Shown here one piece after another: positions 24,580-28,006 of a stretch of 36,565 nt of DNA. The DNA is from Candidatus Sericytochromatia bacterium (GTDB lineage: Bacteria > Cyanobacteriota > Sericytochromatia > S15B-MN24 > UBA4093): contig JBEIFE010000001.1 in the NCBI GenBank assembly GCA_040382575.1, forward strand, positions 1 to 36,565, given 5' to 3'. A program made the translations under genes and the position numbers. Numbering within the stretch: position 1 is the first letter of the stretch; each line of letters begins with the position of its first letter. The notes below the pieces were generated by a model. The model searched no databases. It worked only from the letters and a program-made list of their open reading frames with translations, and was not told the DNA's origin.

Positions 24580-26292
24580 ATGGCGCATATCCCGGCTCCG
24601 GTCGGCCCCGTTCGTTTTGAAACCCTGTCGCACGGTGTCGCCCTCGGACGAGACCGTGTCGAGGAGATCCTGGCCCCCCTCGATACCTGGTGGGCCAGGC
24701 TGGACACCTTGCATTTCGATCGATATCGGCAAGATGTCCTGGAGGGACGCATCTTCTCCGTCTTCGGAGTCCAGATTGACGGCGACCTGCCATCGATGAC
24801 GGGACTCTTGACGCGCCACGAGGCCGGTGCGCGATCGGGGGGCGCATCGCCAGACCTCCATGTCGCTAGTGGTATCGGTTCGGTTCCTCGTCCCACGACC
24901 ATCGTGAGGCGATACGACTTGCCGCGATACCTGCCGGTCCGCATCACGCGGTCGACCGGAGAAGTCGAGCAGGACTGGATCTTGCTCGGTCCTTCTTCGC
25001 AGGGTACGGCTCTGGCTTTCAAGCTCACTCCCGCGGGCCCCGTTCACAAGCGAATCCCCGTCGACCAGCTCCTGGCGCAGAATGCGTCACTCATCCTTCC
25101 CGGGGCGATCGTGCGGGTGCCTCGCAGTTCGGGTGAGGCCGAAGAGGGCTGGGTCGTCCTGGCCACCCAGGATGACCGTTTGCTCGTCGAGAAGGGGGGA
25201 GTCGGGCGCAAGCAGATCCTGGCCTCCCATCTGGCGCCTTTCATCGCTTCCCTGTGGGGATGCGTTCCCTTGCAGACCCCCGAGGCTCCGCGTCCCCAGC
25301 CCCTCTCGGTCGCTGTCGGAACGGATCTGCGCATCTATCGCAGCGAGGGGAATCTCGAGCCCGGCTGGACGCTCGTCCGTCAGGAGGGAAGTCAGCTCCA
25401 CCTCCAGCGCGAGGGCGCCCACGGGATGTTGCAGAAGCGTCTGCGTCTGGAGATGGCGCTCATCTGGAACCCCGAATTGCTTCCCATCGGCATGACCCTG
25501 CGCCTGGAGGTGGAAGGCAAGGTCGCGGACGGCTGGCTGCTGGTCAGCGCAACCCGCGACGGTGTCGAGGTGGTCCATGTCCTTCACGGTTCGAGGGTCG
25601 AGACCCTCGAGGTCGTCTTGCGGATGAACCGGGAGCGGATCCTGGGCGAGGGTGAACCCCCTTTCCGTTTTCCCTCTCCGGAGGCGAGAGGGCAGAGACT
25701 GGCCTATGCGCGGGATCACCTGCTCGAGGGCTATGTCTGGGATGGCTTCGCGGATGGTGGGCGCCATGCCGCACTCGATACCGATTACTGGCCGGTGGCG
25801 ACGCAACGGGAAGTGCTGGTGGTCGATCGCGCTTGCGACGTCTCGCTGCGTCAGCATATCCATCGGGTCCAGGCCACGCTGGAGTCGCTCGAGCCCGTCC
25901 AGCGGCTCCAGGAACTCGCCAGATATGTCCATGAACAGATGGGGGGGCCCATTTCGCGCGTCGAGGAGCGAGTCGCCCTCGCGGCTGCTCGCTTGCGCCA
26001 GCAGCCCTTGTTGATCGGCGACGTGCCGCGGATTTTCGGTGGTGGGATCGTCAGGCACCGCACCTTGCTGTTCCAGGTTCTTGCCGAGGAGGTCGGGTTG
26101 AGCTCCGTCATGGTGCGCGGGGATGCGGGAACGTTTTGCCCATCCCCCCATGCCTGGAACCTGGTCGAGTTGCCGGACATGCGCCTTGCCGTGGATCTGG
26201 CCAGGCCGGCATCTCAGGCCTTCGCGGACCTGCAGCATCCGTGGACTCAGCGTTATTACCATCCCAATCCGCCCCGGGGAGACCTGGCATGA
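24580..26292 (+). CDS. protein with four tandem ~55-aa beta-rich repeats and a C-terminal EDR1/CTR1-type regulatory domain
   Basis: 570 aa from ATG 24580; the track start 24163 overlaps the DUF983 gene. Residues ~375-548 carry GYVWDGF, VLVVDRACD, LARYVHEQMGGPI, GIVRHRTLLFQVLAEEVGL, HAWNLV and LAVDLARP, which match the plant CTR1/EDR1 N-terminal domain as I recall it. The stop overlaps the next start (ATGA). Confidence 0.8.
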   Translation: MAHIPAPVGPVRFETLSHGVALGRDRVEEILAPLDTWWARLDTLHFDRYRQDVLEGRIFSVFGVQIDGDLPSMTGLLTRHEAGARSGGASPDLHVASGIGSVPRPTTIVRRYDLPRYLPVRITRSTGEVEQDWILLGPSSQGTALAFKLTPAGPVHKRIPVDQLLAQNASLILPGAIVRVPRSSGEAEEGWVVLATQDDRLLVEKGGVGRKQILASHLAPFIASLWGCVPLQTPEAPRPQPLSVAVGTDLRIYRSEGNLEPGWTLVRQEGSQLHLQREGAHGMLQKRLRLEMALIWNPELLPIGMTLRLEVEGKVADGWLLVSATRDGVEVVHVLHGSRVETLEVVLRMNRERILGEGEPPFRFPSPEARGQRLAYARDHLLEGYVWDGFADGGRHAALDTDYWPVATQREVLVVDRACDVSLRQHIHRVQATLESLEPVQRLQELARYVHEQMGGPISRVEERVALAAARLRQQPLLIGDVPRIFGGGIVRHRTLLFQVLAEEVGLSSVMVRGDAGTFCPSPHAWNLVELPDMRLAVDLARPASQAFADLQHPWTQRYYHPNPPRGDLA

Positions 26293-27248
26293 ATGCACGA
26301 ACGACGATCACCCGTCTGGCCGTGGGCGATCGCCTCGAAGGGTTCGAGATTCTCGGGATCGCCGGGGAAGGGGGCATGGCCCGTGCCTACCGGGTTCAGT
26401 CTCCGGAGGGGCCCGCCATTTTCAAGCTGGCCAAGCGAGCGGTACCGGATGCCTGCGGTGAGGCCACGATCGCCGAGCGTTTCGCTCAGGCCGTCGCCTT
26501 TCATACGGGCGGGATGGGACCCGGTTCCCTGTCCGCTAATGAGGTGCTGGAGCGCGAGGCGATGCTCGTCGGGGGGCTCCGGGATCCGATCTTCCCGCAG
26601 GTTTGGGCCTCCGGTCGGGTGGGAGATCGATCCTATGCGCTCTACGAGGATCTGGGGCGTGACGATCTGCGTGCGCGGCTCTCCAGAGGGGAAGCCATTC
26701 CGGGGTCCTGGATGCTCCGTCTCGCGGGGGAGCTCGCGCAGCGCCATCTGGACGGAAGGCTTCCGTTCCACGGGGATCTCAAGCCCGATCACATCTTCTT
26801 CGAGGCCACCGGTGCCGTTCGTCTGATCGATCCGGCCTGCGCCGCGGCCGAGGGACGTCCGCCCGGCAGCCGGAGCCTGCTGACCACTCCGGTCTATAAC
26901 CCGTATCTCCAGGCGGATGACCGGACGGCATTCTCTCTCGTATGGCTGGAGGCCCTGATGGGTGAGACGATCCTTGGCGAGGTCCCCCAGCGTGAACGTG
27001 CCAGCTTCGGCGCCACTTTTCGCAAATGGCTCGAACTGATGGAGTCGGGGGCGCGAGGGCGGCATGTGCGACTATTGACCCGGATGCCCGCCACCAGCGC
27101 TTTTCGTGCCCGGATCCCGGAGCCTCTTCTGGCCTGCTTGCTCCAGGCTCTGGGCCTGCAGATCGATGCAGACGGGGCGCTCGAACTCGTGGCAGGATTC
27201 CAGAACTGGCGAGATTTCCTGGCCGCACTCGAAAGGGTCCAGCCGTGA
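26289..27248 (+). CDS. Hanks-type Ser/Thr protein kinase-like protein (atypical catalytic motifs)
   Basis: 319 aa. G-loop GIAGEGGMARAY, Lys in AIFKLAK, catalytic loop HGDLKPDH, LIDP at the DFG position, then TTPVYNPY and DDRTAFSLVWLEALMGE (subdomains VIII-IX). GGGAG lies 7 nt upstream of the ATG. Confidence 0.8.
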   Translation: MNARTTITRLAVGDRLEGFEILGIAGEGGMARAYRVQSPEGPAIFKLAKRAVPDACGEATIAERFAQAVAFHTGGMGPGSLSANEVLEREAMLVGGLRDPIFPQVWASGRVGDRSYALYEDLGRDDLRARLSRGEAIPGSWMLRLAGELAQRHLDGRLPFHGDLKPDHIFFEATGAVRLIDPACAAAEGRPPGSRSLLTTPVYNPYLQADDRTAFSLVWLEALMGETILGEVPQRERASFGATFRKWLELMESGARGRHVRLLTRMPATSAFRARIPEPLLACLLQALGLQIDADGALELVAGFQNWRDFLAALERVQP

Positions 27249-28006
27249 ACATCAAGACGGTCAAGCTCCGGGTCGAGCAGGAACTCCAGGCGGGACGCCT
27301 TGACGAGGCAGCCCGGATCATCCGGCAAGGGATCTATTCGGCTCCCTCATCGGTCGATCTACAGCGTCTCCTTGCCCATGTCCTCGTTCGGGGGGGACAC
27401 CTGGAACTTGCTCTCCAGTCCCTTTCCGAGGTTCTCCGACTCGATCCCGATCAGTCGGGAGTACGCTTTCTCCTGGCTCTCGCCCTCCAGGAAGCGGGCT
27501 TCCTCCCGGAAGCTCTCTACGAGTTGCAGGCCGTCGTTCAGCAGGAACCGCAGCGCTCCGCGGCACGTCTCGCTTTGGCGGCCATGCTCGAGCGGACCGG
27601 CGATTTCGAGGGTGCTCGTGCCGCCTATCTGGAGCTCGTCAGACTGGAACCCGGCATGATCCCGGCCCTGGTCAACCTGGCCGTCCTCACGGAGCGGCTG
27701 GGGGATGCGGTGGAGGCAGAACGTCTCTTCCGCGAGGCTCTGGCCAGCTCTCCCGATGACATCGTGAGCGCTTTGAACCTGGCCAGGTTACTCGGACAGC
27801 GGAACCTCCTGGAAGAGGCTCGGCGAATCCTGGGGCGCGTGCTTGACCAGATTCCGGGGCAGCCAGAGGCGCTGGCGCTGCTGGGCTGGATCTACCTGCT
27901 CGGTGGGCACGCCGACCCAGCGCGTGCCTATCTGGATGAGGCTCGGCGCGCCGGGCTCGATTCGCCCAGGGCTCGGGCATGTCGAGAGGCCCTGCCGCTT
28001 GCTTGA
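27245..28006 (+). CDS. tetratricopeptide repeat protein
   Basis: 253 aa of repeated 34-aa helical units (e.g. ALQSLSEVLRLDPD, ARAAYLELVRLEPG, AERLFREALASSPDD). GTG 27245 overlaps the kinase stop (GTGA). Confidence 0.8.
   Translation: MNIKTVKLRVEQELQAGRLDEAARIIRQGIYSAPSSVDLQRLLAHVLVRGGHLELALQSLSEVLRLDPDQSGVRFLLALALQEAGFLPEALYELQAVVQQEPQRSAARLALAAMLERTGDFEGARAAYLELVRLEPGMIPALVNLAVLTERLGDAVEAERLFREALASSPDDIVSALNLARLLGQRNLLEEARRILGRVLDQIPGQPEALALLGWIYLLGGHADPARAYLDEARRAGLDSPRARACREALPLA

Follow-up and report, generated by a model that had tools for sequence, protein, structure and literature searches.

In plants, the EDR1 domain is fused directly upstream of a protein kinase domain, as in CTR1 and EDR1; it lies in the regulatory region of CTR1, which functions in ethylene signalling, and of EDR1, which functions in immunity, and it is also present in animal ARMC3. 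To our knowledge, the molecular function of this domain has not been established. The Pfam family of the domain (PF14381) has been assigned to the transglutaminase-like (TGL) group of papain-like folds (PMC10318531). In both plant proteins, the N-terminal region with this domain serves in docking: the N-terminal domain of EDR1 binds MKK4/MKK5 (PMC4022593), and the N terminus of CTR1 is reported to bind the receptor histidine-kinase domain (PMC3933193). Here, we describe a bacterial locus with a comparable pairing, located in a 36,565-nucleotide stretch of DNA (hereafter the window) from a Candidatus Sericytochromatia bacterium (assembly GCA_040382575.1, contig JBEIFE010000001.1, positions 1 to 36,565 of the forward strand). 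Three consecutive genes of the window, referred to as A, B and C, encode a protein with a C-terminal EDR1-type domain, a kinase-like protein and a tetratricopeptide repeat (TPR) protein, respectively; an earlier reading of the same sequence (the original prediction) had described them as an unfused bacterial counterpart of CTR1/EDR1 with an added TPR partner.

The A-B pair was found to be conserved across bacterial lineages and in different genomic contexts, and the EDR1-type domain of the window A was found to have lost the cysteine at its catalytic position. With a probability of about 50%, we propose that the three genes form a translationally coupled operon for a cytoplasmic Ser/Thr-kinase complex, in which A would serve as a non-catalytic docking or regulatory subunit.

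Recurrence of the Gene Pair across Lineages

In every Sericytochromatia locus examined (L001-L006, L009 and L013/L014), A, B and C follow one another with overlapping or abutting stop and start codons just 3' of gltX, and the ATGA overlap between A and B is also present in L001, L004, L005 and L013. The most distant orthologues share 29% (A) and 35% (B) identity, and across the range of 29-81% identity both genes retain undisrupted frames and numerous invariant positions. Since the A-B-C arrangement within Sericytochromatia alone could represent inherited synteny, its recurrence outside the lineage is the decisive evidence. The neighbourhoods of five multi-repeat, Cys-intact A-type proteins outside Sericytochromatia (P0042, P0045, P0051, P0028 and P0039) were therefore examined, and in each of them the next gene, at a distance of -8 to +15 bp, encodes a protein of 304-338 amino acids (aa). 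The flanking genes in these loci, which have a GC content of 60-72%, are an lpxD-fabZ-lpxA-lpxB cluster, an Rce1-like gene with mevalonate-pathway genes, ahpC, or a molybdopterin oxidoreductase gene, and the fifth locus (L022) shows a single unannotated upstream gene; the cluster of P0042 carries the name 'Deltaproteobacteria bacterium'. A hidden Markov model (HMM) built from the Sericytochromatia B proteins only matched four of the five downstream proteins over their full length at 134-179 bits, whereas a generic L012 kinase scored 20 bits, and hhalign aligned the B family with the downstream protein of the P0042 locus (L015) at a probability of 99.8% (E 4.5e-30). The remaining locus is represented by its annotation, which gives a 306-aa neighbour labelled APH and Pkinase.

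The A proteins that are paired with B in these other lineages have the full Cys-His-Asp triad, and no TPR gene accompanies the pairs; A-B is therefore the conserved core, and C is an addition in Sericytochromatia. The composition given in the original prediction thus holds for Sericytochromatia, where all three genes are present, but has to be narrowed to A and B in the other lineages. In every locus examined with the multi-repeat architecture, the five outside the lineage included, the A and B homologues are neighbours. None of the three outcomes that the original prediction had named as refuting it, namely the lack of a significant PF14381 match, of a kinase fold in B and of any adjacency in other genomes, was observed. 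An adjacent B was not found beside two A relatives without this architecture, namely a Gimesia maris protein and a one-repeat protein of 317 aa.

The degenerate catalytic positions of the two proteins, with Val for Cys in A and His for Asn in B, might suggest that the genes are decaying relics, or that their adjacency has no functional meaning. The conservation data have already largely refuted this explanation, which we regard as scarcely credible: undisrupted frames and numerous invariant positions persist over the whole range of identities, the stop/start overlaps have been preserved, and the A-B pair occurs in five unrelated genomic contexts.

The best genome match is at 81% identity, and the other matches are named Candidatus Sericytochromatia or have doubtful cyanobacterial names. 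Two metagenome-assembled genomes (MAGs) with A orthologues bear names of other genera, i.e., 'Stenomitos sp.' (L010, DATNQJ010000274.1) and 'Pantanalinema sp.' (L005, GCA_036704125.1), the latter with the whole gltX-A-B-C locus. Their GC content of 68-71% is like that of the MAGs named Candidatus Sericytochromatia, and the genus-level labels of both look doubtful.

A Protein with an EDR1-Type Domain and a Lost Nucleophile

Protein A begins with a conserved region, continues with four SH3/Tudor-like repeats and ends in a TGL domain of the EDR1/CTR1/ARMC3 type. The likeness of its C-terminal part to EDR1, which had been proposed from motifs, is confirmed by Pfam, as PF14381 matches aa 408-541 with an E-value of 1.4e-15 and 58.1 bits (gathering cut-off 27) over profile positions 59-196 of 203, and precomputed PF14381 annotation is found on 11 of 11 homologues. 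A word-indexed search with the EDR1-domain alignment returned three proteins only and was replaced by an exhaustive profile search, which yielded 762 cluster representatives at E <= 1e-3. A Pfam scan of the closest relatives detected PF14381 in all 135 and, in 45 of these, PF01841 (Transglut_core) as well, the corresponding count for a set of 111 relatives being 44; the nearest relatives of A are bacterial proteins, not plant ones. Moreover, FHA domains occur in 12 of these 135 relatives and RamC_N in two, which supports a second, independent link of the EDR1-type domain with phospho-Ser/Thr signalling. Against the Protein Data Bank (PDB), the broad family profile (A8) matched the TGL structure 9crn (E 1.9e-7) and the NAT-fold amide synthase GdmF (E 5.6e-4), while full-length A and the narrow profile A3 gave no significant match to PDB sequences. 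Many bacterial EDR1-type domains (relatives P0030-P0173) stand at the C-terminus of proteins of 1,100-3,900 aa; among the large proteins scanned, 9 of 24 contain FHA, and LysM, RHS, GGDEF, PLD-like or RamC_N domains were found in others.

The original account of A had missed the four N-terminal repeats, which share the signature V.V.RSSG....GW...V.K.G.G.K. The repeat HMM detects four units in the long forms of A and two in the 430-aa forms, and the same repeats lie upstream of the EDR1 domain in many bacterial relatives. In the AlphaFold2 (AF2) model, each repeat is predicted to fold into a small beta-barrel with a short helix after it, at a predicted local distance difference test score (pLDDT) of 70-90. 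Their Foldseek matches are tandem Tudor, Agenet and KOW proteins, with low template modelling (TM) scores since the whole chain was the query. For the entire protein, the model has a mean pLDDT of 59 with a patchy EDR1 domain, and it was not used for active-site geometry.

The Cys of the family motif G-V-C-R-H-R, the His of H-A-W-N and the Asp of V-D align with the catalytic residues of 9crn and GdmF, and this Cys-His-Asp triad is intact in 129 of 163 related domain instances. The window A has an incomplete triad, in which His524 and Asp539 are present and Val491 replaces the Cys. In the original prediction, GIVRHR of A had been aligned with GLCRHR of CTR1; the likeness stands, but the mismatch on the catalytic Cys had been overlooked. 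Because the mismatch falls on this very residue, the window A is probably not an enzyme of the transglutaminase-like type. Across the orthologous group of the window, the site is occupied by Ala, Val or Ser, the last in the P0008-type orthologues, and by Asn in the most divergent member, P0162, with His and Asp kept throughout. Another conserved Cys near the active site was looked for and not found, C520 being absent from the 430-aa forms. In Sericytochromatia, the nucleophile site has come to tolerate V, A, S or N while the rest of the domain is conserved, as is typical of a pseudo-enzyme that is retained for its binding function. The A proteins of other phyla, in contrast, are probably enzymes, because their triad is intact.

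A different explanation is that the window A is still an enzyme, such as a hydrolase or an acyl-transferase in which the His-Asp pair works with water, Ser or a substrate-assisted nucleophile, and that it is gated by kinase B or acts on the phospho-substrate of B. The invariance of His524 and Asp539 despite the loss of Cys agrees with such a role, as do the Ser at the nucleophile site of some orthologues, the full triad of the B-paired A proteins in other lineages, and the true enzymes among the related folds (TGL and NAT-type GdmF); the FHA and RamC_N fusions, moreover, suggest action on phospho-proteins. However, a site that differs among orthologues of a single group (V, A, S or N) shows the pattern expected of a dispensable nucleophile, neither Val nor Ala is capable of this role, and there is no alternative conserved Cys to take it over. 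We consider continued catalysis by the window A unlikely and retain the non-catalytic, docking or regulatory role for it.

A Divergent Family of Hanks-Type Kinase-Like Proteins

Good evidence that B is a divergent Hanks-type kinase is provided by profile comparison and by its predicted fold, in agreement with the kinase-like nature originally suggested for the second protein. A profile of nine B orthologues matched Ser/Thr kinases in the PDB (StkP, E 3.2e-8), and the AF2 model of B (pLDDT 73.9, predicted TM score 0.75) retrieved Stk1, PknI, PknB and PknE in Foldseek at a probability of 1.00, with E-values of 1.8e-11 to 1e-9 and TM scores of 0.5-0.64. The Pfam scan gave a divided answer, since the window B had no match to PF00069 at E <= 1, but its orthologues scored 10.6, 23.4 and 36.4 bits (cut-off 31.7), the one from L005 lying above the cut-off. 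No match of the window B to PF07714 was obtained, and the best B orthologue reached an E-value of 0.051. The PD-T4-6 kinase models match B at 5e-7, which is the level of general kinase homology.

The residues of a kinase core, K46, E90, D163 and D181, are present and invariant across the B orthologues. G28 of the Gly-rich loop and K46 are unchanged across phyla, Glu90 of helix C aligns with the REA motif of StkP, and H161-G-D163-x-K165-P is invariant in all B orthologues, other phyla included, with HGD in place of HRD. The DFG position reads DPA or DPS in the family, and D181-P is invariant. In addition, the insert between beta3 and helix C carries T60, F65, A66, F71, T73 and G74 in all orthologues at a pLDDT < 50. 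With this characteristic conserved insert, B appears to represent a new family of bacterial Hanks-type kinases. The catalytic-loop Asn is His168 in the sub-clade of the window only (P0015-P0017) and Asn in all other B orthologues; because His replaces a Mg-binding Asn, the activity of B in this sub-clade may be weak or atypical. In PknI, a kinase of low activity, the catalytic-loop Asn is likewise substituted, and PDB titles of its R136N mutants are consistent with the substitution. Another B-like protein, P0024 (358 aa, on a 2.2-kb contig), combines B-like N-terminal two-thirds with a PF00175 NAD_binding_1 annotation and probably results from a frameshift or from chimeric assembly rather than from a real fusion.

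A B-type kinase domain was present in none of the 146 closest EDR1-domain relatives, and a Pkinase domain of any type was present in only one of the 135 relatives scanned against Pfam, a eukaryotic protein. Eukaryotic fusions of EDR1 with a kinase extend beyond plants to the haptophyte Diacronema lutheri (P0141/P0190). The B-family HMM, however, scores ~3 bits on the kinase of this fusion, compared with 60-66 bits on the bacterial kinases P0025 and P0026, and B therefore appears to be related to the eukaryotic EDR1-fused kinase at the superfamily level only. As weak evidence in the same direction, a rough neighbour-joining tree of the EDR1 domain placed the eukaryotic fusion apart from the repeat-bearing, kinase-paired bacterial clade.

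These data bear on whether the locus preceded the CTR1/EDR1 architecture in bacteria, or is a copy of it gained by horizontal transfer, with the eukaryotic proteins having arisen by fusion of an A-B type pair. The domain order, EDR1 followed by a kinase, is the same, the host falls within the broadly defined cyanobacterial phylum, and the Diacronema protein shows that such fusions are not confined to plants. Nevertheless, the score of the B HMM on that kinase is not significant, B lacks a significant match to PF07714, and the EDR1 domain of the fusion clusters away from the kinase-paired bacterial clade in the rough tree; we hold direct descent in either form to be quite improbable. A recent transfer from plants was rejected, as the closest relatives of A are bacterial. 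Because B is unrelated to the eukaryotic fusion kinase beyond the superfamily, the locus is treated as a functional analogue of the CTR1/EDR1 architecture, in which the two domain types would have become associated independently, and not as a demonstrated split homologue. Of the unfused counterpart originally envisaged, the domain pairing is thus retained, whereas homologous descent of the entire module is not.

Operon Layout and the TPR Protein

The layout of the operon in the open reading frame (ORF) list of the window is the one originally described, with both stop/start overlaps at their places and exact outer limits of 24580-28006. A purine-rich, Shine-Dalgarno-like stretch precedes all three starts, namely AGGTGG located 7 nt 5' of the start of A, GGGGAGA 5' of B and AAAGGG 5' of C. 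The starts of B and C are in frame with their long ORFs, and the chosen starts of all three genes agree with the N-termini and lengths of the orthologues (253-256 aa for C). A scan of the unit for promoters and terminators detected no promoter-like site (0) and a single terminator-like site, located within A and fewer than chance would predict; the A-B-C unit is uninterrupted by such signals beyond the chance level. Rfam and NCBIfam scans of the window returned nothing specific to the operon. No signal peptide or transmembrane segment was seen in A, B or C when the translations were inspected by eye, and the three proteins are accordingly taken to be probably cytoplasmic.

The assignment of C as a TPR protein also proved right. 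It matches TPR_19 (6.3e-26, 90.9 bits), TPR_16 (1.4e-20, 73.8 bits), TPR_2 (68.6 bits) and other Pfam models, and the TPR model of PknG, PF16918, remains sub-threshold (5.5e-6, 25.8 bits, cut-off 27). In PADLOC, C has a generic TPR match to PrimPol only. It lies downstream of B in the Sericytochromatia loci and is absent from the A-B pairs of the five other lineages.

Table 1. Coordinates of the A-B-C operon, its notable elements and the surrounding genes in the window.
Feature	Position	Strand	Description
Gene A	24580..26292	+	570 aa, start ATG; ORF and start, orthologue alignment, Pfam PF14381
Four ~55-aa repeats of A	24913..25644	+	aa 112-167, 171-225, 243-296, 300-355; repeat HMM
EDR1-like TGL domain of A	25660..26286	+	aa 361-569; Pfam match at nt 25801-26202
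Val491 at the catalytic Cys position of A	26050..26052	+	GGGIVRHR here, G[VMA]CRHR in relatives
His524 of A (HAWN)	26149..26151	+	kept triad histidine, invariant in family
Asp539 of A (VDL)	26194..26196	+	kept triad aspartate, invariant in family
A stop/B start overlap	26289..26292	+	ATGA, read as ggcATGAatg
Gene B	26289..27248	+	319 aa, start ATG; divergent Hanks-type protein kinase-like; ~100-aa helical C-terminal extension
Gly-rich loop and beta3 lysine K46 of B	26364..26426	+	GEGGMARAY (aa 26-34); aligned with GRGGMADVY and VAVK of StkP
Family-specific insert of B	26442..26522	+	aa 52-78, beta3 to helix C; ..T..A..FAQ...F.TGG.G.; predicted disordered
Catalytic loop of B	26769..26792	+	HGDLKPDH, aa 161-168; D163 and K165 kept, Asn to His168
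DPA of B in place of DFG	26829..26837	+	aa 181-183; metal-binding Asp181 invariant
B stop/C start overlap	27245..27248	+	GTGA, read as cagccGTGAac
Gene C	27245..28006	+	253 aa, start GTG; all-TPR protein, ~6-7 repeats; Pfam TPR matches
tRNA-Val (anticodon TAC)	21977-22050	+	just 5' of gltX; sole Rfam/ARAGORN match in window
gltX (Glu-tRNA synthetase)	22482-24050	+	likely start near 22596; PF00749 2e-102
DUF983 protein gene	24055-24468	-	PF06170 1.9e-6; zinc-ribbon-like CxxC pairs
Convergent 505-aa ORF	28014-29531	-	ends 7 bp after C; no Pfam/NCBIfam match
M14 zinc carboxypeptidase gene	29971-31464	-	syntenic with operon in L001, L013
MoxR-type AAA+ ATPase (AAA_3/bpMoxR), then DUF58/VWA gene	31603-33521	+	MoxR syntenic in L001, L013

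Surrounding Genes

The gene gltX stands immediately 5' of A-B-C in every Sericytochromatia locus examined. In E. coli, the HipA kinase targets GltX, and a HipA-like role of B on GltX was considered and rejected, as the A-B pairs elsewhere are not near gltX; the proximity of the two units is probably just inherited synteny. The DUF983 gene is divergent from A and shares with it an intergenic region of 111 bp, and other small genes are found at this place in L004 and L005. On the other side, the N-terminal part of the convergent 505-aa ORF is built of tandem 10-aa units (SEPPRSEFRLI-like), with a period of 30/60 nt at 29197-29318 in Tandem Repeats Finder; a 504-aa counterpart is present at the corresponding position in the close relative L001, and different genes lie 3' of C in L004 and L005. 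We found no evidence that the M14 and MoxR genes belong to the A-B-C unit.

This setting is informative for a further explanation, according to which the locus is a conflict module, i.e., an anti-phage defence or toxin-antitoxin system with a kinase and a peptidase-like effector acting on invader or self proteins. The match of B to the PD-T4-6 defence kinase, the RHS repeats of one giant EDR1-domain relative together with the LysM domains of others, and the varied contexts of the A-B pairs in other phyla would fit such a system. On the other hand, PADLOC gives nothing significant for A and nothing specific for C, and B matches at the general kinase level only; the operon has kept its position by gltX, the M14 peptidase gene and moxR even between deeply diverged Sericytochromatia, a sign of vertical inheritance; mobile-element genes and a composition shift are absent; and the predicted effector has no nucleophile. 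A conflict function is accordingly judged highly improbable, and a kinase complex with A as a docking or regulatory subunit remains our preferred interpretation.

Proposed Mechanism and Significance

In the proposed model, B would be a dedicated, divergent Hanks-type kinase whose family always occurs with A-type proteins. The four SH3/Tudor-like barrels of A probably bind a ligand or a target, and the EDR1-type domain of A in Sericytochromatia is proposed to be a non-catalytic docking or regulatory subunit, or a substrate of B, rather than a peptidase, because the nucleophile site varies while the domain stays conserved. Protein C would be a TPR adaptor added in Sericytochromatia, comparable to the TPR domains that are fused to many bacterial kinases. 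The Asn to His change of B in the sub-clade of the window would correspond to weak or atypical catalysis. In other phyla, the Cys-intact A is probably an enzyme that would be controlled by kinase B or act together with it. The tight translational coupling, the strict co-occurrence and the docking precedents in plants are the reasons for which a stoichiometric cytoplasmic complex is proposed.

The gene structure, the domain identities, the residue states and the co-occurrence of A and B are directly documented. Several points weigh against this model. The physical interaction of A, B and C, the direction of regulation, the targets and the scaffold role of A are what we infer; the EDR1 domain of A is modelled by AF2 at low confidence; and the window B fails the Pfam kinase cut-off. 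As well, the conservation of His524 and Asp539 could reflect residual chemistry, and the Ser at the Cys position of some orthologues could act as a nucleophile. All member sequences, moreover, are derived from metagenomes, and expression of the genes is presumed.

More broadly, and tentatively, A-B may be a signalling module that is widespread in bacteria and has escaped description to date; the EDR1-type domain in it would be an obligate kinase partner, whether as regulator, substrate or effector, and the eukaryotic fusions would reflect the same coupling. If this holds, the bacterial pairs would make the biochemical role of the EDR1 domain accessible to study, and the version in Sericytochromatia would be a pseudo-enzyme derivative with a TPR adaptor. 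Bacterial lineages repeatedly keep, in different contexts, an EDR1-type gene beside one dedicated kinase family; this pairing, together with the FHA fusions, provides Rosetta-stone style evidence that the EDR1 domain works with Ser/Thr phosphorylation. In addition, the natural variants, with the triad intact in other phyla and the nucleophile missing in Sericytochromatia, can be used to separate catalytic from scaffolding roles.

Comparison with Known Systems

The domain families and the NCBI name 'EDR1-related protein' are already known. In the searchable literature, no published description was found of a bacterial EDR1-domain and kinase pair, the B kinase family, the repeat, or the variant of Sericytochromatia that lacks the Cys and has a TPR partner. 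Bacterial proteins of that name, such as the one from Gimesia maris (WP_002643993.1, P0035 cluster), belong to the same domain family as A. Unlike A, the Gimesia-type protein has a hydrophobic leader (a signal peptide by eye) and an intact C-H-D triad, and it has neither the repeats nor an adjacent kinase. The fold and triad positions of the A family align with those of the TGL/NAT-fold Cys-His-Asp enzymes 9crn and GdmF, but the nucleophile of these enzymes is absent from the window A and from all its Sericytochromatia orthologues.

With respect to its kinase, the locus resembles those Hanks-type kinases that carry TPR modules, such as PknG of mycobacteria, in that the B protein with its predicted Hanks fold is accompanied by the TPR protein C. 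The two are encoded by separate genes here, unlike in the PknG type, and kinase-TPR fusions occur in some of the loci examined. B also shares a substituted catalytic-loop Asn with the low-activity PknI, and differs from both PknG and PknI in its conserved insert, its C-terminal extension, DPA for DFG and its EDR1-like partner protein. The large bacterial proteins with FHA-EDR1 fusions, like the locus, tie an EDR1-like domain to phospho-Thr signalling; unlike the locus, they join it to a phospho-peptide reader, with no kinase pairing.

A parallel in architecture is offered by the plant Raf-like MAPKKKs CTR1 and EDR1, with which the locus shares a PF14381 domain directly upstream of a protein-kinase fold. 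In the window, however, the two parts are separate genes overlapping by ATGA and not one polypeptide; the kinase B appears to belong to a separate bacterial family and not to the TKL/Raf-like kinases (PF07714); and the catalytic-type Cys of the CTR1 motif GLCRHR is a Val in A. The locus further differs from the plant proteins in its bacterial origin, in the probable cytoplasmic location of its products, and in the addition of SH3/Tudor-like repeats and a TPR partner.

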